Source of the DNA: Patescibacteria group bacterium
Lineage (GTDB): Bacteria > Patescibacteriota > Minisyncoccia > Portnoybacterales > UBA2143
Length of the DNA stretch: 64,000 nucleotides
NCBI GenBank assembly: GCA_018830295.1
Contig: JAHJSM010000001.1
Span: 129,980 to 193,979 of the forward strand
Direction: 5' to 3'
Shown here: positions 29,273-63,846 of the stretch, piece after piece
Position numbering within the stretch: position 1 is the first letter of the stretch
Layout: every line of letters starts with the position of its first letter
Notes under the pieces: generated by a model
Seen by the model: only the letters and a program-made list of their open reading frames with translations
Database searches by the model: none
What the model was told of the DNA's origin: nothing
Program-made: the position numbers and the translations under genes

Positions 29273-29331
29273 GGGGGCTGCCCCCCGCAACGGGGGCAGC
29301 CCCCATCTTTACTGTTTGGGGGGCAGCCCCC
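29273..29331. repeat. REP-like GC-rich palindromic repeat cluster (family A: GGGGGCWGCCCCC units)
   Basis: gggggctgccccccgcaacgggggcagccccc plus an extra gggggcagccccc unit, in the 3'UTR of the anti-sigma gene. Confidence 0.8.
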
Positions 29332-29338
29332 ATCTTAA

Positions 29339-30088
29339 CTACTCACAAACATTAATCACCTCTTCCGTCGTTGTCGTTCCTCCCGTCTCCAATTCTCTCA
29401 AAAAGGTAAGTATCTCATAACCCGGCGTTGTCGTCCCCATTCCCTCTTCTCCATCAACCAACAAAACAGCCAAAATCTGCTGCCCAATATCCTTAATCGT
29501 CTCATCCGCTTCCACTAATTCATTCTTAATATCAGAAGACGCGTTTTCCTTAACTTTATCCAAATCCTCCTTAATCTGCTTCGTTCTGATTACAACCGCG
29601 ACCGCTTCTTCTTTTGAAATTTTATCAATATCTTGGCTGAAATTAGCCAAATTTCCTTTGAAATCAACAACTACCTTTCTCGCTTTTGCGTCCGATTCGC
29701 CTGAAACAAGGGAATTTTTCGTTATTTTCGTCAATTCTTCCAACCGACGGCAAGCGAAATCCGCCTGCAATTGGCTCTTTTCTCCACCTAATAAAGCCGC
29801 GCTTTGAACGCTTTCACCCGCTCTTTTAACGGAATAAAGCAATTCCCCAGGCAAACTCATTTGCGCCGCCTTTAAGGTCATCCAAGGTCCTCCAATAAAA
29901 ATCAAAGCCAGACAAGCCGCCAAAGCCATTGACTGCGTTTGTCTAATCCATTCAAAAAAGCCAACTGGCTCATCAAAGCCAATCTTCGCCATCAAATCCC
30001 GTCGCGCCAAATCAACCCATTCTCCCGATGGCTCAACTTTCCGCAATCCCTTGATTTTTTTAATTAAATCTCTATCTCTTGTCTCCAT
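29339..30088 (-). CDS. Putative membrane-anchored anti-sigma factor
   Basis: Immediately downstream of the ECF sigma gene. Short cytoplasmic N-terminus, single TM (MALAACLALIFIGGPWMTL), then an extracytoplasmic domain. Confidence 0.45.
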   Translation of the reverse strand: METRDRDLIKKIKGLRKVEPSGEWVDLARRDLMAKIGFDEPVGFFEWIRQTQSMALAACLALIFIGGPWMTLKAAQMSLPGELLYSVKRAGESVQSAALLGGEKSQLQADFACRRLEELTKITKNSLVSGESDAKARKVVVDFKGNLANFSQDIDKISKEEAVAVVIRTKQIKEDLDKVKENASSDIKNELVEADETIKDIGQQILAVLLVDGEEGMGTTTPGYEILTFLRELETGGTTTTEEVINVCE

Positions 30089-30141
30089 ACTAAGTATGAC
30101 GAACCCCCGCTCATTTTGTTACACAGTAAGGGGGGAAAGAT

Positions 30142-30242
30142 GGGGGCTGCCCCCGTTGCGGGGGCAGCCCCCATCGGGGAAATCGGGGGCAGCCCCCATC
30201 TTCTAGGCATCGGGGGCTGCTCCCGCAACGGGGGCAGCCCCC
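30142..30242. repeat. REP-like repeat cluster (family A, 3 units), overlapping the 3' end of the sigma factor CDS
   Basis: Units at 30142-30172 (full hairpin), 30185-30197 (half) and 30212-30242 (full hairpin, one mismatch). Each is followed by ATC(T/G). Confidence 0.8.
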
Positions 30243-30745
30243 ATCTTACACTTCAACTCCTTCAACGCCCTATGAATCAACACCCTAACCGTTCCTTCGG
30301 GCTTTTCTAAAATTTGGGCGATTTCCTTGTTTGAAAAGTCATCCAAATAGCGCCAAATGATAATATTTTGATATTTATTCTCAATCTGACCAAGCGCCTT
30401 TTTTACTTCCTCCACATCAGAATCTATATTCAATCGGCTGTTTAAATCAAATTTATCTTCAATTTTAGATAAAATACTGTCTTCTGGGTCCATAATAAGA
30501 TCCGTCCGCGATTTTTTGCGATAAAAATCAATCACCAAATTATTGGCTATTTTATAAAGCAAAGCCCTTGGATTCTCAATAACTGTCTTATCCGAGCCGT
30601 CTTCCGAGACATTCCGCCAAAAACGCAAAAAAACCTCCGAAGTCAAATCCTCCGAGTCCCGAGGCGAACTAACCTTCAAGTAAACAAAACGATAAATCCG
30701 CCCCGCATACCTATCATAAATTTTAACAAACTCCCTCTTCTTCAT
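30203..30745 (-). CDS. RNA polymerase sigma-70 family ECF sigma factor
   Basis: Region 2 (EVFLRFW...YRKKSRTDL) and region 4 HTH (YLDDFSNKEIAQILEKPEGTVRVLIHRALKELK). The C-terminal 15 aa (CKMGAAPVAGAAPDA) are encoded by a REP copy. Confidence 0.75.
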   Translation of the reverse strand: MKKREFVKIYDRYAGRIYRFVYLKVSSPRDSEDLTSEVFLRFWRNVSEDGSDKTVIENPRALLYKIANNLVIDFYRKKSRTDLIMDPEDSILSKIEDKFDLNSRLNIDSDVEEVKKALGQIENKYQNIIIWRYLDDFSNKEIAQILEKPEGTVRVLIHRALKELKCKMGAAPVAGAAPDA

Positions 30746-30754
30746 AGGTTTAGA

Positions 30755-30832
30755 GGGGGGGCAGCCCCCGTTTTTGCGGGGGCAGCCCCCCGATTGGAGA
30801 AGGGGGCTGCCCCCGTTGCGGGGGCAGCCCCC
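30755..30832. repeat. REP-like repeat cluster (family A) between the RAYT gene stop and the sigma factor start
   Basis: Two half-units and one full 31-nt hairpin. The cluster ends 10 nt upstream of the sigma factor ATG. Confidence 0.8.
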
Positions 30833-30838
30833 AAGAAA

Positions 30839-31408
30839 CTATTCAAAATCAAGTTTTTCCTTAATTTGAAGGTCAACTACCTCCTCTTCTGTAACTCGTT
30901 TATACCATTCCGGCGAATTATCCCCCATTATCACCTCTTTGTCGCAAAGCGTTCCTTCGCGCGCTCCGATATAGTCGGGATAACTTGACCATTGATAATC
31001 CTCCAACTTACTAACCAAACCCGCAGAAAGAGGATTTAGGTGAATATATGACGAAAGATGCAGAAGATATTCATCTTTATCAATAATCTTACACCCGAAT
31101 CGACCTTGAAAAAGATGCCCTGTTTTACTATATTTCTTGTTGAAATACATTGAATAACTTGTATGTAAAGATGAAACGAACTTGGAAATAGGCGTTTCTG
31201 TATTTTGCCTTATTGCTAAATGAATGTGATTAGGCATTAAGCAATAAAAAACAATTGTAACATTATATTTTTTGTTATATTCTCTTGCTTTCTTTAAATA
31301 AAAAATATAATCTTCTTCATCTAAAAAGATATCTTTTTTATTATTACCACGATTATAAACATGGTAATACGCTCCTTCATAGTAAATTCTTGGTTTATAT
31401 TCTGCCAT
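30839..31408 (-). CDS. REP-associated tyrosine transposase (RAYT; IS200/IS605 TnpA-like Y1 HuH transposase)
   Basis: YYHVYNRGNNKKDIF and MPNHIHLAI (HuH) match the RAYT/COG1943 pattern. SYIHLNPLSAGLV is comparable to the YIYINPVKHG helix of E. coli RayT. The protein is flanked on both sides by REP hairpins. The start is placed at MAEYKP (ATG at 31408). The longer ORF to 31456 reads through a REP. Confidence 0.75.
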   Translation of the reverse strand: MAEYKPRIYYEGAYYHVYNRGNNKKDIFLDEEDYIFYLKKAREYNKKYNVTIVFYCLMPNHIHLAIRQNTETPISKFVSSLHTSYSMYFNKKYSKTGHLFQGRFGCKIIDKDEYLLHLSSYIHLNPLSAGLVSKLEDYQWSSYPDYIGAREGTLCDKEVIMGDNSPEWYKRVTEEEVVDLQIKEKLDFE

Positions 31409-31416
31409 ATGTATTT

Positions 31417-31471
31417 TGGGGGCTGCCCCCGTTGCGGGGGCAGCCCCCATTTCCACGCGGGGGCTGCCCCC
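31417..31471. repeat. REP-like repeat pair (family A) immediately upstream of the RAYT gene
   Basis: Full 31-nt hairpin at 31417-31447 and a half-unit at 31458-31471. Confidence 0.8.
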
Positions 31472-31527
31472 AATTGTTTTCTATACAGTATAGGCGAAAA
31501 GAGATAAAACAGCAAGAGTTTTGTTCA

Positions 31528-34500
31528 TTACTCCCCAAATGCGTACAAAGTTCCGTCGTCGGAGGCGATGTAGATTGTTCCTGTGGAATCAATCGCGGCT
31601 CCTTGGGAAATGACATCGTTTAATTCTTCGGATTGCCATTTGAGAGAGCCGTCGGGGTTAACCGCGTAAAATGTTTTGCTGTTGGAACCGATGTAAATTG
31701 TTCCTTCCTTGTCAATGATTGGCGAGGCGTGAATTTTTCCTTGCGCGTTGAAAGTCCACTTAGTGCTATCATCTGTCTTATTTAAGGCGTGAAGATAATA
31801 ATCATGACTGCCAACATAGATCACATCTTGCCCAACGACTGGTATTGAATTACTAATCTCGCCAACCTGAACAAGATTAGACCATTTTAGACCACCATCA
31901 GATGAATTGAGAGCGTATAAACCATAAATACCGCCAACAAAAATTGTTCCATTATCATCCAAAGCGGGGGCGGTATCAAATGTGCTTGAAGCGCTTTTCC
32001 AAACGATGCTTCCGTCTTGAGGGTTAAGGGCGTAGACATTTCTACTGTTGTCGCCAGGACCTATTTGGCTAACAGTATAAATAATTCCATCTGAATCCAA
32101 AACTGGCGCTTTGACCCAATCTCCATTACTTAAATCCTGATTTTGCCAAACTAATTCTCCGTTGGGATTGAGGGCGTAAAGACCGTATTTAGAGCCGACA
32201 TAGATGGTTCCGTCGGAGGTGATTGTTGGTGAGGAGCCGTCGTGAATATTGTATTTCCATTTTAATTGGCCTTCTGAAGATAAAGCGTATAGATAATGAT
32301 AATTGTCAGATATGTAAATTGTTCCATCCGAAGCGATGGCGGGCGTCTGGATGGTTCCTATGGTTTGAGTGTTATAAAACAATTCCGCTGTTCCTGTGGC
32401 GTTGTCAAAGCTAACTTTGTAGAGGTTGCCGCTGCCTGCGCCGATATATATTTCCCCCTTCAAACCAATAACAGGAGACGATGGGCTGCTGCTTCCTAAA
32501 ATTATTTCCCTCGGAGTACTGGTCGGAGTTCCTGTAGCTGTTCCCGTATTAGAACTTAATCCGCTATGCCGGATATCGCCTTGAAGCATAGGCCAAGCCG
32601 TGTCGGCTAATTCAGGGAAGACAGCGTCTGGCTCAATTAAACTTAAAGAATTTTGCGGATTGGGAACGGTTTGCAAAACAAAGTCCTGACTGTTGTCATC
32701 TCTGTCTATATTATTCCCGCTCCAATGATGCGCGCCGTTGACCGCCAAAAGTTCCGCCGTAGAACTAGCAAATGCTTGGCGTTCTAAACTACCCCAAGGA
32801 AAACTATCAGTATCAACTGGCTTTCCCTCCGCTCCCAAACTATCTTTTCCCCAAGCGATCAAATCAACTGTTTCGTTATCACTTTTTAATAACTTGATTT
32901 TGCCTCCTGCGGCGGATAGATCTAAATAAGTCGGATCGCCCGTGGAAAGAGCCATGGCCGTCAAATCTGGCTCCATACCATAAGAATAACCAGCAGAACT
33001 AGTAGCGGAAGTTAAGAGATAATAACTATGGCTGGGTAAGTTGAAATTAGGCAAGGAACTAGTTGCTTCGCCGTCAACATTAAAATATATGCGATACCAA
33101 GTAGTAGTTGATTGAGACGAAGCGCGTCGCATAGACCAACCGCTCAAATTGATTGGATCATTGGTTGGGTTGTACAATTCAATAAATTCGTCGGTCTTGC
33201 GGCTATCGCCCAGCTGAACGGATATTTCGCTAATAACTATATTCTCCGCTATGGCTGATGGGCTGGAAGAGGCGATATTGGAAATTTCAGAAAGATTTCC
33301 CATATCATCTTCGGACTTTATTGCCCAGTAATATGTTTTGCTTGGCGTTAAGTTAGATATAGTTAAATTTTCCGTGCTGCTCGCGGAAGACGGCGACGGC
33401 TCGCCGACAATATCAGTTGAAGACGCCCAGTTGAGAGCGGTGATTTCGTAGGAAGTGGAGTATCTGATGATGTATGACGAAACAACGATGCTGTCACCCG
33501 GGGCAGTCCAGGAGAGGGCGACTGTCCCTCGGGTGACTCCCGAAGTTGCTGACAAGTCGGAAACAACCGACGGGGGAGTCGTGTCAACAATTAAATTTAG
33601 CAATACATCCTCGCTTTCGTTTTGAGCCGCGTCAATCGCTTTTACGGCGAGATTGTTTTCGCCTTCCAATAAATCAAGAATGCAATCCCAATCGCCCAAT
33701 CCGTCCGCGGTTGTCGTTGCTGCCGTTGTTGAGGCGAGGGAGACAGAAACAAGAAAACCAGGTGAAGATGTTCCAATCAAATTGATTTGATTAAAACCCA
33801 AAATATCCCCCGAAGCATGAGATGTGATGGAGACCACGGGAACGGAGACGGGGGCTGCCCCCGCAACGGGGGCAGCCCCCGATGCCCCACCCCCAATCGG
33901 AAAAGAAAATCCAAAAGGATGAGGAGACGGAACCGCTGGCTCTTCTTCTACCTCTTCTTCAATTTTCTCTTCTTCAACAATAATTATTTCCTCTATTTTC
34001 TCTACCTCTTTTACTTCTTTTATTACTTCAACTTCTTTTATTTCCTTTACTTCTTCTATCACTTCTACCTTCTCTATTACTTCTACCTTCTCTATCACTT
34101 CTATATTTTTTACTTCCTTAACAACAGGATTATTAACCAATGCCCCGCCAATTCCTGCTGATTGAAATGTTAAACCATTATTTCCGCCAAATAGTTCATC
34201 CCAAAAATTCCCAACAACCTCCATCACATATCCAGCATTTATCGGTCTTGTTTCTTCGGGATTGTAATACATAGATTGTTCCCAAGGATATTTAGATGTT
34301 CCGCCGCCTAATTCAATAACAAAAATACTTTTGCTCGCTTCTATTTCTTTGCTTTTGCCAAGTTTTGCCAAATGAAGCAAATCTATTCCTAATATGGGCG
34401 ACTTTGTTAGAGTTATCGCGCCATTAAATTGAGCAATATATTCCTGTGTTATTTCTTTTAGTTTGTAATTGTTATACGCGATTTTATAGCCGTCTTTACT

Positions 34501-35094
34501 CCATTTTTCTATTCTATCCCACATAAAAAAATTACAAATCTCATCACCTTCCTCATCAACACAAACAGCGTGCGAACCATTGGCAACATAAGCCCAAATA
34601 TGATTTGTTTTAGGACTTTCAATTTCTGTATCAAAGGTTTTTCTATGATGAGCCGTTCCAACTGTTCTAATAACTTCTTTTGTTTCTTTATCAACAAAGA
34701 CAAAGACCGCTTCCCAGTCGCTATAGTGTTTATTTTTAACTGTTACTGGATTATTATTGAAAACAAAAAAAGTCCAATACTCATAAACCCAATGGTCGCC
34801 CTCGTCTTCTATGTGGTAGAAAACGACAATATTGTTGGTTTTTTCAGCAAAAGAGAGATTATTATATTTCGCTCTAGCTTCCGCTCCTTCAATTTCTTCT
34901 CCGTTGACAAAATAAAAATCCAACGGGTCGGTTGGATAATATTGCTCATCAGGGTCAAATTGAAAATTAGGCGCGTAATTTAAGACAGAAGGAGGATTAT
35001 TCCCGTCATTCTGCCCCAAAACAAAAAAAGCAATCGAGCAAATAAAAAAAACAAAAAGTAAGATATATGACTTTGGAAAATAAAAGTTTTTCAT
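31528..35094 (-). CDS. Giant secreted multidomain surface protein (about 1188 aa): N-terminal domain, charged E/V/K/I-rich repeat linker, FN3-like domain, lamin-tail domain (LTD), C-terminal PQQ-like beta-propeller
   Basis: Signal peptide MKNFYFPKSYILLFVFFICSIAFFVLG. LTD-like IVISEISVQLGDSRKTDEFIELYNPTNDPINLSGW. C-terminal repeated G(T/E)IY(I/V)GS...Y(A/L)(L/V)N..(D/N)GS.KW motifs typical of PQQ-like propeller blades. An in-frame REP copy lies at 33850-33880. The start is placed at ATG 35094. The ORF extension to 35193 reads through REPs. Confidence 0.65.
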   Translation of the reverse strand: MKNFYFPKSYILLFVFFICSIAFFVLGQNDGNNPPSVLNYAPNFQFDPDEQYYPTDPLDFYFVNGEEIEGAEARAKYNNLSFAEKTNNIVVFYHIEDEGDHWVYEYWTFFVFNNNPVTVKNKHYSDWEAVFVFVDKETKEVIRTVGTAHHRKTFDTEIESPKTNHIWAYVANGSHAVCVDEEGDEICNFFMWDRIEKWSKDGYKIAYNNYKLKEITQEYIAQFNGAITLTKSPILGIDLLHLAKLGKSKEIEASKSIFVIELGGGTSKYPWEQSMYYNPEETRPINAGYVMEVVGNFWDELFGGNNGLTFQSAGIGGALVNNPVVKEVKNIEVIEKVEVIEKVEVIEEVKEIKEVEVIKEVKEVEKIEEIIIVEEEKIEEEVEEEPAVPSPHPFGFSFPIGGGASGAAPVAGAAPVSVPVVSITSHASGDILGFNQINLIGTSSPGFLVSVSLASTTAATTTADGLGDWDCILDLLEGENNLAVKAIDAAQNESEDVLLNLIVDTTPPSVVSDLSATSGVTRGTVALSWTAPGDSIVVSSYIIRYSTSYEITALNWASSTDIVGEPSPSSASSTENLTISNLTPSKTYYWAIKSEDDMGNLSEISNIASSSPSAIAENIVISEISVQLGDSRKTDEFIELYNPTNDPINLSGWSMRRASSQSTTTWYRIYFNVDGEATSSLPNFNLPSHSYYLLTSATSSAGYSYGMEPDLTAMALSTGDPTYLDLSAAGGKIKLLKSDNETVDLIAWGKDSLGAEGKPVDTDSFPWGSLERQAFASSTAELLAVNGAHHWSGNNIDRDDNSQDFVLQTVPNPQNSLSLIEPDAVFPELADTAWPMLQGDIRHSGLSSNTGTATGTPTSTPREIILGSSSPSSPVIGLKGEIYIGAGSGNLYKVSFDNATGTAELFYNTQTIGTIQTPAIASDGTIYISDNYHYLYALSSEGQLKWKYNIHDGSSPTITSDGTIYVGSKYGLYALNPNGELVWQNQDLSNGDWVKAPVLDSDGIIYTVSQIGPGDNSRNVYALNPQDGSIVWKSASSTFDTAPALDDNGTIFVGGIYGLYALNSSDGGLKWSNLVQVGEISNSIPVVGQDVIYVGSHDYYLHALNKTDDSTKWTFNAQGKIHASPIIDKEGTIYIGSNSKTFYAVNPDGSLKWQSEELNDVISQGAAIDSTGTIYIASDDGTLYAFGE
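33850..33880. repeat. REP family A hairpin embedded in frame inside the giant surface protein CDS
   Basis: gggggctgcccccgcaacgggggcagccccc translated as ...GGGASGAAPVAGAAPVSV... in the CDS frame. Confidence 0.8.
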
Positions 35095-35105
35095 CCAGGA
35101 TCTTT

Positions 35106-35160
35106 GGGGGCTGCCCCCGTTGCGGGGGCAGCCCCCTTCCCCAAATCGGGGGCTGCCCCC
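35106..35160. repeat. REP-like repeat pair (family A) in the short intergenic region upstream of the giant surface protein gene
   Basis: Full hairpin at 35106-35136 and half-unit at 35147-35160. Confidence 0.8.
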
Positions 35161-35165
35161 TTTAT

Positions 35166-35798
35166 CTAATTCTCGCTGCCCCAAACTCCCCACCCCAAAA
35201 ACACCCCAAAAATAGCGCTCATTAAAGAAAAAGTTAATAGATAACTAATCATTTGACAATCAAACAAAAAACCAAACGAATTTCCAATCACAGGCGCGAT
35301 TAAGGAGCCAAGAGCGAATCCAACCCCGCCTCTCCAAGTCAAAGACCATTTTTTAAGTTTGAAGAATAGGGAGTAGAGAAAACTGACAATAATGCCCATT
35401 ATGAAGAAAAATAGCCAAAAGTCGCCTACTGTAATATTTGGATCTAAATTCAAAAACTTATTAAATGTCGCAGCGCTTGCAAGTGGCTCCATAAAAAAAC
35501 TTGAGAGATAAATTCCAATAAGATACAAAGGATACTGGAATATCGCCGTCACAATAAATCCAATCACCAATCCCACAAAAACAACTAAAACCGACACTGC
35601 CATTTTCTTCGCGCTTTTCGAAAACCATTGCAAAGCAATTCCGCCGAATATACTTAAAGCGATAGCAAATGAGTAATGAAAAGTATATTCTATATCAGGA
35701 ATTCCCATATACATCACCACCCCCCAAATCAACCCGCCTAAACCAAACCCCAACGCGACGGTCAATAAATACTTCTTTAACGATATTATGTTGTCCAT
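35166..35798 (-). CDS. Polytopic membrane protein (about 6 TM), function unknown
   Basis: Six hydrophobic helices. No recognisable catalytic motif. Confidence 0.5.
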   Translation of the reverse strand: MDNIISLKKYLLTVALGFGLGGLIWGVVMYMGIPDIEYTFHYSFAIALSIFGGIALQWFSKSAKKMAVSVLVVFVGLVIGFIVTAIFQYPLYLIGIYLSSFFMEPLASAATFNKFLNLDPNITVGDFWLFFFIMGIIVSFLYSLFFKLKKWSLTWRGGVGFALGSLIAPVIGNSFGFLFDCQMISYLLTFSLMSAIFGVFLGWGVWGSEN

Positions 35799-35834
35799 AA
35801 AATTCTCCTTTCTTTTTAATTTTAACTTTTAATC

Positions 35835-35869
35835 GGGGACAGTCCCCATTCAAAATGGGGACTGTCCCC
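35835..35869. repeat. Inverted pair of family B palindromic units (GGGGACAGTCCCC ... GGGGACTGTCCCC) forming a 13-bp stem hairpin
   Basis: ggggacagtcccc-attcaaaat-ggggactgtcccc, 37 nt upstream of the membrane protein start. Confidence 0.75.
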
Positions 35870-35976
35870 AAAAGATATATCCCTATCCCAATGAAATGAT
35901 TTGAAATCCTTTTTCTCCCATTATATCACAAAATCGCTTGCGGAAAAATGGGAGGGTATAACAGCAACAACAACAA

Positions 35977-36037
35977 GGTCAGACCTTCAGAAAGAGAATT
36001 GAGGTCAGACCTTTTCAGTTTTGAAAGGTCTGACCTC
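35977..36037. promoter_or_regulatory. Three copies of the palindromic 11-mer AGGTCWGACCT (two direct, one inverted): candidate terminator and/or operator sites
   Basis: aggtcagacctt at 35977 and 36002, and aaggtctgacct at 36026. Located 30 nt downstream of the pseudo-protease gene stop. Confidence 0.45.
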
Positions 36038-36066
36038 AATGCTTCTTAACCCAAGGATTTTTTTTA

Positions 36067-36819
36067 TTAAAACCCTGCAAATAATTTGATTTGACTGGAG
36101 GGGATTGTTTCAATGAGGCCTTTTTGGTCTACTAGGTTTAGACCGATGACCTCGCCCTTGATATTAACCAACGGACCGCCATTGGCTGAAGAATTTTGCT
36201 CAGTTAAATTGATTTTGAGAATTTTCGCGTAAATACTTCTAATGATGCCTAAATTAACAAAACGATTTAACCCTTCTTCTGTTAATTCGGCGCCTATTAA
36301 AATAATCCTCTGTCCTAATCGCAAGTCCTCAAAATCAACAAAAGAAACGACTGGCAAATTACTCTCGCCTATTTTAAGCAAAGCCAGATTACTTCCCACG
36401 TCTTTTTTCACGACTTCCGCCGCCAAAGAATGACTATTTCTAAAAATTAAATACCGGTCGGCTTTAGTGGAAATATTGTCAGCCGCCGTTATAATCAAGC
36501 CATCGCTCGCAATCACGAAACCCGAACCCTGACTAATTATTTTCTCCCCTTGAAGCGCCTGGACAATAACCAAGCAAGGTCCGACCTTACTCACGGCGTC
36601 TTCTATCGCCGTATTTTCAGTAATAACAATTTTTTCTGTTGGATTGATAATAGTTGTCCCATTTCCCGATTGATGAATAAATTTAATTTTAGAAAATGAA
36701 GGAATTGTGGAAAGATACGGTAAAAAAAACTGGTCAGCCAAAACGCCGCCCAGCCCTCCAATGACCAAAATTGCGAACAAATTAAAAACTTTTTTACGCA
36801 TAAACAAGATTTGCCTCAA
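36067..36819 (-). CDS. Membrane-anchored trypsin-fold (S1C/HtrA-like) protein with the catalytic triad apparently substituted (predicted inactive pseudo-protease)
   Basis: N-terminal TM. GSGFVIASDGLIITAADNI aligns to DegP GSGFII..GYIVTNNHVI (H to D). SNLALLKI aligns to TDIALLKI (D to N). NSSANGGPLVNIKGEVIGLN aligns to NPGNSGGPLLNLNGEVIGIN (S to N). Confidence 0.6.
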   Translation of the reverse strand: MRQILFMRKKVFNLFAILVIGGLGGVLADQFFLPYLSTIPSFSKIKFIHQSGNGTTIINPTEKIVITENTAIEDAVSKVGPCLVIVQALQGEKIISQGSGFVIASDGLIITAADNISTKADRYLIFRNSHSLAAEVVKKDVGSNLALLKIGESNLPVVSFVDFEDLRLGQRIILIGAELTEEGLNRFVNLGIIRSIYAKILKINLTEQNSSANGGPLVNIKGEVIGLNLVDQKGLIETIPSSQIKLFAGF

Positions 36820-36823
36820 ACGA

Positions 36824-37201
36824 CTACCAATTCAATTCTATCTTGCGGCTAATACTCATATATTCCCCCTTTGAAGTAATAGTATCCGAGCCATTGTAGT
36901 CGGCAGTATATTTCGCGCGAGCGTTAAAGTCAAGACTATCCGCAACAGTTCCCCCGCCAGCAACATCGCATCCAATTCCCATTTCTTTCCTCACCTCATA
37001 CAAACATCTCTCCGCGCCGGCGTCAGCGGCGTAAAGCGCGATGACTGATTGGCCTGTTTGCCCGGCTAATCTAGTCTGCTGGATTGTTAGAGTAGCTATC
37101 CCTATCACAATCGTTGAAATCATACTCAAAACCAAAACCGCCAAAACAATGGAAATCGCCCCTTTTTGAAAATTTTTTTCCACTAGTTGTCTTTTTGCCA
37201 T
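36824..37201 (-). CDS. PilX-N-like minor pilin / pseudopilin
   Basis: QKGAISIVLAVLVLSMISTIVIGIATLTI matches the PilX_N-type N-terminal hydrophobic segment. Confidence 0.45.
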   Translation of the reverse strand: MAKRQLVEKNFQKGAISIVLAVLVLSMISTIVIGIATLTIQQTRLAGQTGQSVIALYAADAGAERCLYEVRKEMGIGCDVAGGGTVADSLDFNARAKYTADYNGSDTITSKGEYMSISRKIELNW

Positions 37202-37211
37202 TTATTATATC

Positions 37212-37724
37212 TTAGAACCGCCTTGAAGCAATGGTGCTTTGCAAATCCATTTCAAACTCTTCTTCCACCTGTCCATCTACTGTTCCTATCTTCATGACTG
37301 TCGTAACGAGCGCGCGCGCGGGAAAGGACTCTTTCGTGACATAAAATCCGCCCACCACTTCAAGATCCGAAGGACTTAAATCCTGCCAAACTCCCGCATT
37401 TACTCGCCTTTGAATTTTGTCGCTGGAAAATTGATAATCAATGCTATCTCCATTAGAATTAATAATACTTAAAGAAATCAAACCATCACCTGAAGCTGAA
37501 ATAATTTCGCTCGCTCGGATTTCCTTATTCATTGTTTCTAAAATATAGCCAGCTGATTCTTGAACATTCTGCATCACAAAGACCCTTCGCTGGGTTTTAA
37601 TAACAGAAATAGATATTGTTGACACGCTTAACATAATTAAACTAAAAGTAGCCATAGCCACCAATAACTCAACTAATGTAAATCCGTTCTTTTTATCTTT
37701 GTTTTTCATTATTTCCAATTCCAT
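37212..37724 (-). CDS. Type IV pilin-like / pseudopilin protein (class III signal peptide)
   Basis: KNG|FTLVELLVAMATFSLIML is a canonical prepilin cleavage/methylation motif. Confidence 0.7.
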   Translation of the reverse strand: MELEIMKNKDKKNGFTLVELLVAMATFSLIMLSVSTISISVIKTQRRVFVMQNVQESAGYILETMNKEIRASEIISASGDGLISLSIINSNGDSIDYQFSSDKIQRRVNAGVWQDLSPSDLEVVGGFYVTKESFPARALVTTVMKIGTVDGQVEEEFEMDLQSTIASRRF

Positions 37725-38218
37725 AACCTATCTTCCGCGGTTAGATTCCGCCAAGCGCCGCCCCTTTGCCATTTAACTTCCACAACCACCTTAACTTCAT
37801 CAGAAGATATTTTCGTTAAACTAATTTTACGATAAAATTGACTATTATCGCCTGAATCATATTGATAAAGCCCGCTCACAGTATTAAATTTCAAAGGCAT
37901 TTCAGAAAAAGCCAACAAATTAGGATTGTCGTATTGAACCAAATAATCGCCGCTTAAAACTGTGTCATACCAATCGCTCCAATCCGACTGCGTCCTCCTC
38001 ATATATCTAACCATCTCTATCCCCTCCTGCGCCAAGCCCGAAGCGGTTAATCGCGCTTGACTCAAAGAAGCAGCCCGCAAAGAGGCCTGACTTAAATCTA
38101 AGATGCCAATCATGCCAACGGAAACAATAAAAATCGCGACAATTACGCCGATTAGAGAAAACCCAGATTTGGGGGCTGCCCCCGTTTTAGGGGGCAGCCC
38201 CCAAATAGATACTTTCAT
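37709..38218 (-). CDS. Type IV pilin-like / pseudopilin protein with a REP copy inside the leader-peptide coding region
   Basis: KSG|FSLIGVIVAIFIVSVGMIGIL prepilin-like segment. The leader MKVSIWGLPPKTGAAPKSG is encoded by a family A REP variant at 38171-38201. Confidence 0.55.
   Translation of the reverse strand: MKVSIWGLPPKTGAAPKSGFSLIGVIVAIFIVSVGMIGILDLSQASLRAASLSQARLTASGLAQEGIEMVRYMRRTQSDWSDWYDTVLSGDYLVQYDNPNLLAFSEMPLKFNTVSGLYQYDSGDNSQFYRKISLTKISSDEVKVVVEVKWQRGGAWRNLTAEDRLWNWK
38171..38201. repeat. REP family A variant (loop GTTTTA) within the pilin leader coding sequence
   Basis: gggggctgcccccgttttagggggcagccccc. Confidence 0.75.
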
Positions 38219-63816: not shown

Positions 63817-63846
63817 GGGGACAGTCCCCTCTTGGGGACAGTCCCC
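63817..63846. repeat. Direct pair of family B palindromic units (GGGGACAGTCCCC x2), 9 nt upstream of the pilD start
   Basis: ggggacagtcccc-tctt-ggggacagtcccc. Confidence 0.75.

Follow-up and report, generated by a model that had tools for sequence, protein, structure and literature searches.

Genes and palindromic repeats at the locus

The window analysed here is a stretch of 64 kb (64,000 nucleotides) from the 744-kb contig JAHJSM010000001.1 of a Patescibacteria group bacterium (assembly GCA_018830295.1), and all coordinates refer to it. Between about 29 and 38 kb it contains genes for an extracytoplasmic function (ECF) sigma factor, a transposase, a large secreted or surface protein and a type IV pilin-like protein, together with a short G+C-rich palindrome of the repetitive extragenic palindrome (REP) type that recurs in the spacers between genes and, in three cases, inside the coding regions themselves (Table 1).

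Table 1. Repeat clusters, host genes and repeat-encoded segments, with positions in the window
Feature	Positions	Strand	Remarks
REP cluster, hairpin with 6-nt loop and one extra unit	29273-29331		spacer between gene for a 1203-aa protein and DUF5667 gene
REP array, 5 units	30142-30242		fills sigma/DUF5667 spacer; last hairpin (30212-30242) inside sigma open reading frame
ECF-type sigma-70 factor, 180 aa	30203-30745	-	Pfam regions 2 and 4
Fifteen codons CKMGAAPVAGAAPDA after ..KELK	30206-30250	-	replace native KQL* tail
REP cluster, 4 units	30757-30832		flanks 3' end of transposase gene
Y1 HUH transposase, REP-associated tyrosine transposase (RAYT) type	30839-31411	-	Pfam Y1_Tnp; best NCBIfam match REP_Tyr_transpos
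REP cluster, 3 units	31418-31471		flanks 5' end of transposase gene
Secreted or surface protein, 1188 aa	31528-35094	-	N-terminal domain, charged repeat, Big_13, fn3, LTD, PQQ-like propeller
Exact 31-nt hairpin	33850-33880		inside surface-protein open reading frame
REP cluster, 3 units	35106-35160		fills spacer upstream of surface-protein start
Type IV pilin-like (PilV-like) gene	37709-38218	-	N-terminal methylation motif; predicted cleavage G19|F20
42-nt insert, 14 codons IWGLPPKTGAAPKS in leader	38165-38206	-	empty-site comparison
32-nt hairpin variant, 6-nt loop	38171-38202		first codons of pilin-like gene

The repeat is built from a 13-nt unit, GGGGGCWGCCCCC, which is self-complementary and has the form G5-C-W-G-C5; the unit GGGGGCTGCCCCC and its reverse complement GGGGGCAGCCCCC occupy the region from 29.2 to 38.2 kb. 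Most commonly two units are arranged across a 5-nt loop (GTTGC or GCAAC), giving a 31-nt hairpin. A search for GGGGGCTGCCCCC-N5-GGGGGCAGCCCCC that tolerated up to three mismatches returned six hairpins, each with one mismatch at most, where none was expected from 100 shuffles. The 13-nt half-site occurs in 22 copies against 0.01 expected, and all 22 lie inside 29273-38202, that is, within approximately 9 kb around the transposase gene. These units form seven clusters, four of which fill intergenic spacers and three of which touch coding regions, and between 29.1 and 35.2 kb no intergenic spacer is without palindromes. Unit orientation alternates within the arrays, most of which are located in spacers between co-directional genes, and the elements reach a few bases past the 31-mer, with AAGAT/ATCTT or ATTT/AAAT flanks (AAGAT in three of eight oriented copies). 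The hairpins are predicted to be highly stable as RNA, at -29 to -39.6 kcal/mol with z-scores of -4.8 to -6.5, and in being multicopy with a predicted RNA stability of -37.5 kcal/mol the element conforms to a REP-like short palindrome. None of the six reading frames of the canonical hairpin holds a stop codon, so open reading frames (ORFs) run through it automatically.

Beyond the window, a scan of the GTDB species representatives for the exact hairpin found it in one contig only, a figure that undercounts the family because the related contig L016 holds the 13-nt unit in other arrangements. An Rfam search at a permissive E-value matched no family and returned only sub-threshold generic hairpins (miRNA precursors).

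A RAYT-type transposase gene lies between the repeat clusters

The transposase ORF matches Pfam Y1_Tnp (IS200-like) with E=1.7e-16, and its best NCBIfam model is REP_Tyr_transpos at 73.5 bits, compared with 20 bits for the IS200 model; a sequence search of the PDB gave no match. The HUH histidines (H62, H64) and the tyrosine Y122 in the motif SSYIHLxP are invariant across four relatives that are 57-60% identical, and the gene has repeat clusters on both sides. In the related contigs examined the transposase gene is found near the sigma gene, even where the surface protein is only ~50% identical: it lies directly upstream of the sigma gene in L004, L005 and L007, and in L016, and probably also in L008, one NTP-transferase gene stands between the two. 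Furthermore, each lineage's transposase gene is flanked by palindromes of its own, on both sides in L007, L008 and L016. The flanking palindrome is GGGGCGTCCC...AAAGGGTGTA in L008 and AAGGYCTGACCTTTTT in L007 and L004, and in L016 it is a composite in which G5CWGC5 units surround a GTAG hairpin. Because of this synteny and the lineage-specific flanking palindromes, the locus bears the signature of a REP/RAYT system, with a vertically inherited REP-associated tyrosine transposase and co-evolving REPs.

The palindromes show evidence of movement, in the form of a filled and an empty 42-nt site and of differences in array copy number and repeat family between strains that are 99% identical, and we infer that the RAYT mobilises them. 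The sequence-only reading, made before any comparison, had taken them for mobile palindromes of the REP type; the excess of hairpins and half-sites over expectation and the RAYT-type gene between the clusters bear this out.

The composite palindrome of L016, a lineage with 69% sigma identity, was seen at 817-874, 1481-1540 and 2790-2860 of that contig. Here, the 13-nt units are the outer arms of a longer palindrome with a GTAG-tagged inner hairpin, and this composite is found both on the flanks of the syntenic Y1 transposase gene and across the 3' end of the sigma gene.

The sigma factor ends in a tail that varies with the downstream repeat

In the 180-aa sigma factor, the Pfam match to region 4 covers residues 113-165, with its end at 164-165, and the last 15 codons of the ORF, CKMGAAPVAGAAPDA, were correctly recognized from the sequence as carrying a hairpin copy. 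This copy has one mismatch (30/31) and encodes at least MGAAPVAGAAP; the flank pattern suggests that the preceding "KM" is probably derived from the element too. Even the stop codon, TAG (30203-30205), is spacer between REP units. Sigma orthologues of 79-87% identity are 168 aa long and end in ...KELK-KQL* or similar. At the DNA level, the REP-free gene of L007 ends in GAGTTGAAA AAG CAA TTG TAG, compared with GAGTTGAAG TGT AAG ATG GGG GCT GCC CCC GTT GCG GGA GCA GCC CCC GAT GCC TAG in the window, L006 and L011, where further REP units follow downstream of the stop. Therefore, the REP array displaced the last three sigma codons and the stop. L006 and L011 are independent assemblies from other samples, and P0258, known as a protein sequence only, is another 180-aa member of the cluster, with the tail ..KELKSKMGAAPVAGAAPDA.

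The same position carries other tails elsewhere. L014 matches the window at 99.06% identity across 9.7 kb downstream, with no difference in the sigma protein as far as KELK. Its sigma/DUF5667 spacer, however, is occupied by ~316 nt of palindromes from another family, AAGGTCWGACCTT, and the sigma tail there is SRLDLLKEN*. In L016, a G5CWGC5 unit is read in another phase to give the end ...AANRGQPPK*, and the stop codon is supplied by the repeat's own GTAG. With three different repeat-encoded tails at one position, namely GAAPVAGAAPDA in the window, SRLDLLKEN* in L014 and RGQPPK* in L016, the sequences indicate that the sigma tail is a by-product of whichever repeat lies downstream and no exapted module.

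The array between the transposase and sigma genes also differs in length within the 99%-identical pair, being one 21-nt unit shorter in L014 (310-364) than in the window (30757-30832).

The pilin-like gene carries a clean 42-nt insert in its leader

In the pilin-like gene the hairpin begins at +13 of the ORF, whose N-terminus reads MKVSIWGLPPKTGAAPKSG|FSLIG. The insert has the structure ATTT-GGGGGCTGCCCCC-TAAAAC-GGGGGCAGCCCCC-AAAT-CT, with ATCT repeated at both edges; its loop is the 6-nt GTTTTA and its stems are identical to the repeat at 26 of 26 positions. It was thought that one and the same 31-nt hairpin sits in all three genes. This holds for the sigma factor, allowing the one mismatch, and for the surface protein, where the match is exact, but the pilin copy is a 32-nt variant with a longer loop. 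Likewise, an insert does lie in the leader ahead of FSLIG, as proposed, but the copy spans 38171-38202, within a block of 42 nt, and not the 31 nt first assigned to it. It is also translated in a different phase (GLPP..GAAP) from the other two coding copies.

Most pilin orthologues are 158 aa long and have leaders of 5-8 aa, such as MSKRNQKG|F. An empty site is present in L001 and L002, whose allele is 92% identical and reads ATG AAA ACA TCT | GGG TTT, compared with ATG AAA GTA TCT + 42 nt + GGG TTT in the window; the 42-nt block is shared by L003 (89% identical), an independent assembly from another sample. The locus is a recombination mosaic, in which the window matches L001 at 97-100% identity for most of the gene but L003 exactly across the insert and the following 21 nt, and gain or loss of the insert therefore cannot be polarised within the group. 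Nevertheless, given that all outgroups are without the insert, it is derived and polymorphic.

Two concerns can be addressed with this gene. The first is that the Gly/Ala/Pro segments drifted to their present composition in regions of low complexity and merely resemble the repeat, as linkers and termini are often of low complexity. The nucleotide identity to the repeat in all three genes (31/31 in the surface protein, 30/31 in the sigma factor and 26/26 in the pilin stems), the lack of such segments in orthologues and the filled and empty pilin alleles, which differ by one clean 42-nt block, make such convergence barely conceivable, and we consider it refuted by the nucleotide identity and the pilin empty site. 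The second is that the copies are in truth extragenic and only appear genic through mis-called starts or ends, a split or pseudogenized surface gene, or a chimeric assembly. Gene callers do extend ORFs through stop-free repeats at this locus, and Di Nocera et al. (PMC3733652) caution that many N-terminal REPs are mis-annotations. In the pilin gene, no start codon (ATG, GTG or TTG) is available in frame after the hairpin and ahead of the G|F site, which is obligatory, and the empty allele has the same ATG and upstream context, so that the hairpin is genuinely intragenic. The sigma and pilin cases also recur in independent assemblies from other samples, and the 31-42-nt repeats are shorter than the k of 141 that is suggested by the MEGAHIT-style contig name, k141_539904 in ENA ERZ27247117 (744,622 bp). 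An artefact is thus very improbable, even though the surface-protein case depends on a single assembly.

During processing of type IV prepilins, the prepilin peptidase removes the leader ahead of the cleavage site. The insert lies upstream of G19|F20, and it should be cut off by this enzyme and be absent from the mature pilin.

The surface-protein copy lies in a hypervariable linker

The hairpin in the surface-protein gene is an exact copy (31/31) that encodes residues 406-415, GAAPVAGAAP. As had been noted from the sequence, it falls between the charged repeat (VKE/IEE) and the next domain, ahead of the first strand of an Ig-like domain. More precisely, these residues are part of a 17-aa linker (404-420) between a conserved FG(L/F)xF(F/P)xGGG motif and the Ig-like (Big_13) domain. 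In six aligned homologues, 38-54% identical to the protein, the same linker is 13-51 aa long, acidic and rich in Ser/Thr, and it is hypervariable in both length and sequence; the linker in the window is 65% G+A+P and holds no D or E. Because its total of 17 aa is typical of the homologues, the REP seems to have taken the place of linker residues already there and not merely lengthened the linker, although the linker is too variable for certainty. In an AlphaFold model based on a 7-sequence alignment, the REP-coded residues are placed in low-confidence coil, and the first confident strand of the Ig-like domain begins at residue 421, five residues past the REP-coded stretch; the N-terminal half of the model is not resolved.

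The homologues P0002-P0005 (44-47% identity) are colinear with the surface protein over its full length, and P0001 (54%) and P0006 (41%) match 64% and 77% of the query, respectively. Full-length orthologues that are colinear across the hairpin rule out a gene fusion at this point, and they argue against a split gene or pseudogene. A protein search for a closer orthologue gave 13 matches, the best at 54%, and a scan of JGI (Joint Genome Institute) metagenomes with a segment spanning the insert found one relative, at 34%. The protein was absent from the collection used for an exact-sequence cluster look-up, and a look-up through the upstream neighbour gene led to the source contig only. The source contig is the one assembly in which this case was seen.

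Probably tolerated insertions rather than domesticated linkers

Taken together, we favour the view that REP/RAYT hairpins are tolerated in these three coding regions as neutral or nearly neutral survivors and are not domesticated linkers, to which we give a probability of roughly 85%. A single, vertically inherited Y1 (HUH) transposase of the RAYT type, flanked by short G+C-rich palindromes, would have spread these palindromes as hairpins and half-units into neighbouring spacers and three coding regions. Copies in coding regions would persist where two circumstances coincide, the element being stop-free in six frames and the landing site being one where extra residues are harmless: past sigma region 4, at the cost of the final three codons and the native stop; in the hypervariable interdomain linker of the surface protein; and, as an exact 14-codon block, in the prepilin leader, which is expected to be cleaved at G|F. 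Since the element is stop-free, the ORF stays open provided that the insert has a length divisible by three, in the case of internal and leader sites, or under no condition at all at a 3' end. Insertion followed by purifying selection would then leave copies that are neutral or nearly so, and we regard the present inserts as likely neutral.

The sequence-only reading had gone further in proposing that the REP-encoded Gly-Ala-Ala-Pro peptides were co-opted as functional flexible linkers or tails and kept by selection. It was right that the coding copies are lineage-specific insertions or replacements, as is apparent from the KQL* ends of sigma orthologues and the pilin empty site. The comparison it called for, with REP-free orthologues, also came out in its favour, as these have no G/A/P segment at the positions concerned (the sigma factor ends in KQL*, pilin leaders are 5-8 aa long and the surface-protein linkers are acidic and Ser/Thr-rich). 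Selection for in-frame events, another of its suggestions, applies only in the trivial sense that non-disruptive insertions are the ones that survive. Domestication itself does not hold up. In its favour, both canonical intragenic copies have the same orientation and phase, which yields the most innocuous of the six possible peptides, and the surface-protein copy falls right within an interdomain linker whose total length is typical of homologues. However, the hairpin is stop-free in 6/6 frames, the coincidence of frame is statistically weightless with three cases only, and the surface-protein linker was already hypervariable and is of different, acidic composition in homologues. Moreover, a domesticated peptide would be conserved across the lineages that carry it, and this is not what was found: the sigma tail gives way to unrelated tails, likewise encoded by repeats, in L014 (99% identical) and in the L016 lineage, and the pilin insert is polymorphic within a leader expected to be cleaved. 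Exaptation is, in our view, quite unlikely.

Retention could also be explained at the RNA level, possibly with the hairpin acting as a 3' stabiliser or decay barrier for the sigma transcript, slowing translation initiation in the pilin leader and serving as a pause site in the surface-protein gene. The genes here are all co-directional and the repeats are therefore transcribed, the predicted stabilities reach -39.6 kcal/mol, the pilin hairpin is positioned near the start of its ORF, and REPs of E. coli act as 3'-UTR (3' untranslated region) regulators (bioRxiv 10.64898/2026.03.23.713779). Polymorphism and turnover of repeat families among near-identical strains speak against a fixed regulatory role, as do the failure to match any Rfam family and the lack of a U-tract after the intragenic hairpins. 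Such a role is unlikely, less so than exaptation, and could operate alongside neutral tolerance. The missing U-tract also rules out an intrinsic terminator inside the ORFs.

Several points weigh against neutral tolerance of REP/RAYT hairpins or soften the case for it. For the surface protein the searches gave no close REP-free orthologue and hence no empty-site comparison, and the structural model, with a mean pLDDT (predicted local distance difference test) of 51, supports the placement of its insert in a linker only weakly. The sigma and surface-protein copies share orientation and phase (GAAPVAGAAP), which could hint at selection on the peptide, with n=2. As for the system itself, the REP_Tyr_transpos score falls just short of the curated equivalog cut-off of 80 bits, the census of copies covers 64 kb of a 744-kb contig, and the eight oriented copies in the window have no GTAG or CGTC at their foot, unlike most described REPs.

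With regard to the foot of the hairpins, we also observed ATCTT directly 3' of four units (29292, 29319, 30185 and 30230) and ATCT at both edges of the pilin insert (38165-38209). To judge from these positions, ATCT/ATCTT may be a target or cleavage motif that substitutes for the absent GTAG tag.

A broader proposal is that the RAYT acts mainly on its own chromosomal neighbourhood, where stop-free hairpins generate strain-level variation in cell-envelope genes and some copies come under selection for the peptide or the mRNA hairpin. We think this improbable, to about the same degree as exaptation; were it true, the variable traits would be prepilin leader length, the surface-protein linker and the ECF sigma tail.

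Relationship to known palindromic repeats

Palindromes inside genes are known from other bacteria. Di Nocera, De Gregorio and Rocco (2013; PMC3733652) catalogued intragenic REPs, located N-terminally, C-terminally or internally, from Proteobacteria, Opitutus, Rickettsia and others, with DNA-repair genes among the frequent hosts. They noted that a stop codon can come from the REP and considered the inserts largely neutral, given their location in termini, flexible linkers or loops. Delihas (2011; PMC3184786) reviewed small repeats fused in frame to genes, and the classic case is that of the Rickettsia palindromic elements (RPEs; Ogata et al. 2000), which both papers cite. Intragenic tolerance of REPs is thus already known from other bacteria, and our understanding of REPs is unchanged by the cases reported here. 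A literature search for RAYTs or REPs in the candidate phyla radiation (CPR) or Patescibacteria found no published description, and the value of the locus lies in documenting a REP/RAYT-type system in a Patescibacteria genome of ~0.74 Mb and in providing natural examples of a stop-free palindrome absorbed into coding sequence by C-terminal replacement, leader insert and linker insert.

The locus resembles REP/RAYT systems (REPtrons; TnpA-REP of E. coli and the REPINs of Pseudomonas) in its single-copy, syntenic Y1 HUH transposase with G+C-rich palindromes on both sides, in palindromes that are lineage-specific and change together with the transposase, and in arrays of alternating orientation. 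It differs in that the hairpins in the window are without a GTAG/CGTC tetranucleotide and are built from the 13-nt G5-C-W-G-C5 unit, in that all copies in the 64 kb examined are found no more than ~9 kb from the transposase gene, and in its small-genome CPR host. The coding copies are like the intragenic GTAG/CGTC REPs of PMC3733652 in being wholly intra-ORF, at termini or internal, and in the repeat supplying a stop. In the window, however, the copies are carried by an ECF sigma factor gene, a pilin leader and a surface-protein gene, and the strain-level empty and filled alleles and the replacement of one repeat family by another go beyond those cases.

Like RPEs, the element is a palindromic mobile repeat that lies in frame in functional protein genes and does not destroy them. 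RPE-1 is much longer and has no associated transposase, whereas the element described here is 31-42 nt long and is found beside a RAYT-type gene; it behaves like an RPE in its in-frame tolerance and is not itself one. [quoted passage not shown] In a MITE, by contrast, terminal inverted repeats enclose a core, there are target-site duplications, and the parent insertion sequence has a DDE transposase. The element in the window consists entirely of one hairpin, bordered by no more than a 4-nt repeat (ATCT), and that at one insert; it is not a MITE.

Gene calls, other palindrome families and regional context

The practical value of these observations lies mostly in annotation, as repeats of this kind give rise to over-extended ORFs, spurious small ORFs and repeat-encoded tails that enter protein databases. 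The automatic call extends the surface protein to 1221 aa (31528-35193) from a GTG start that overlaps the upstream gene, and the 190-aa transposase to 203 aa (30839-31456) from a start inside the repeat. Both calls, and the spurious small ORFs, arise because the canonical element is stop-free in six frames. The ORFs at 30116-30310+, 30794-30988+ and 31321-31616 had been dismissed as artefacts at the outset, and they are indeed in the ORF list and explained in the same way.

Other palindromes are present in the window. A second family, GGGGACAGTCCCC/GGGGACTGTCCCC, is found at 35835-35869 and 63817-63846, and a copy in L012 (2685-2722; contig JAHIHE010000152.1 of a GTDB metagenome-assembled genome) lies inside a 130-aa ORF, ..ETGTVPRPEGLSPRE.., so that members of this family may, on the sequence, also be in frame within genes. 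The third family is the one encountered in L014 and occurs at 35976-36040 of the window; in L014 its array (869-1184, ~316 nt) takes the place of the G5CWGC5 array in the sigma/DUF5667 spacer. Turnover of repeat families at one spacer between 99%-identical strains is a useful population-genetic observation.

The interval from the Trypsin_2 gene to the Y1 transposase gene is a variable region, because its cargo differs among relatives (L004 3140-9033, compared with 35200-36000 of the window). L004 holds an NgoPII-type restriction-modification pair and SocA_Panacea genes and is without a surface-protein gene, and L008 holds an epimerase gene and small ORFs. No tRNA genes were found in the 64-kb window. 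All but two of its large ORFs are on the minus strand, and its G+C content reaches 36-46% in 10-40 kb compared with 25-32% on either side (1-10 and 40-64 kb).

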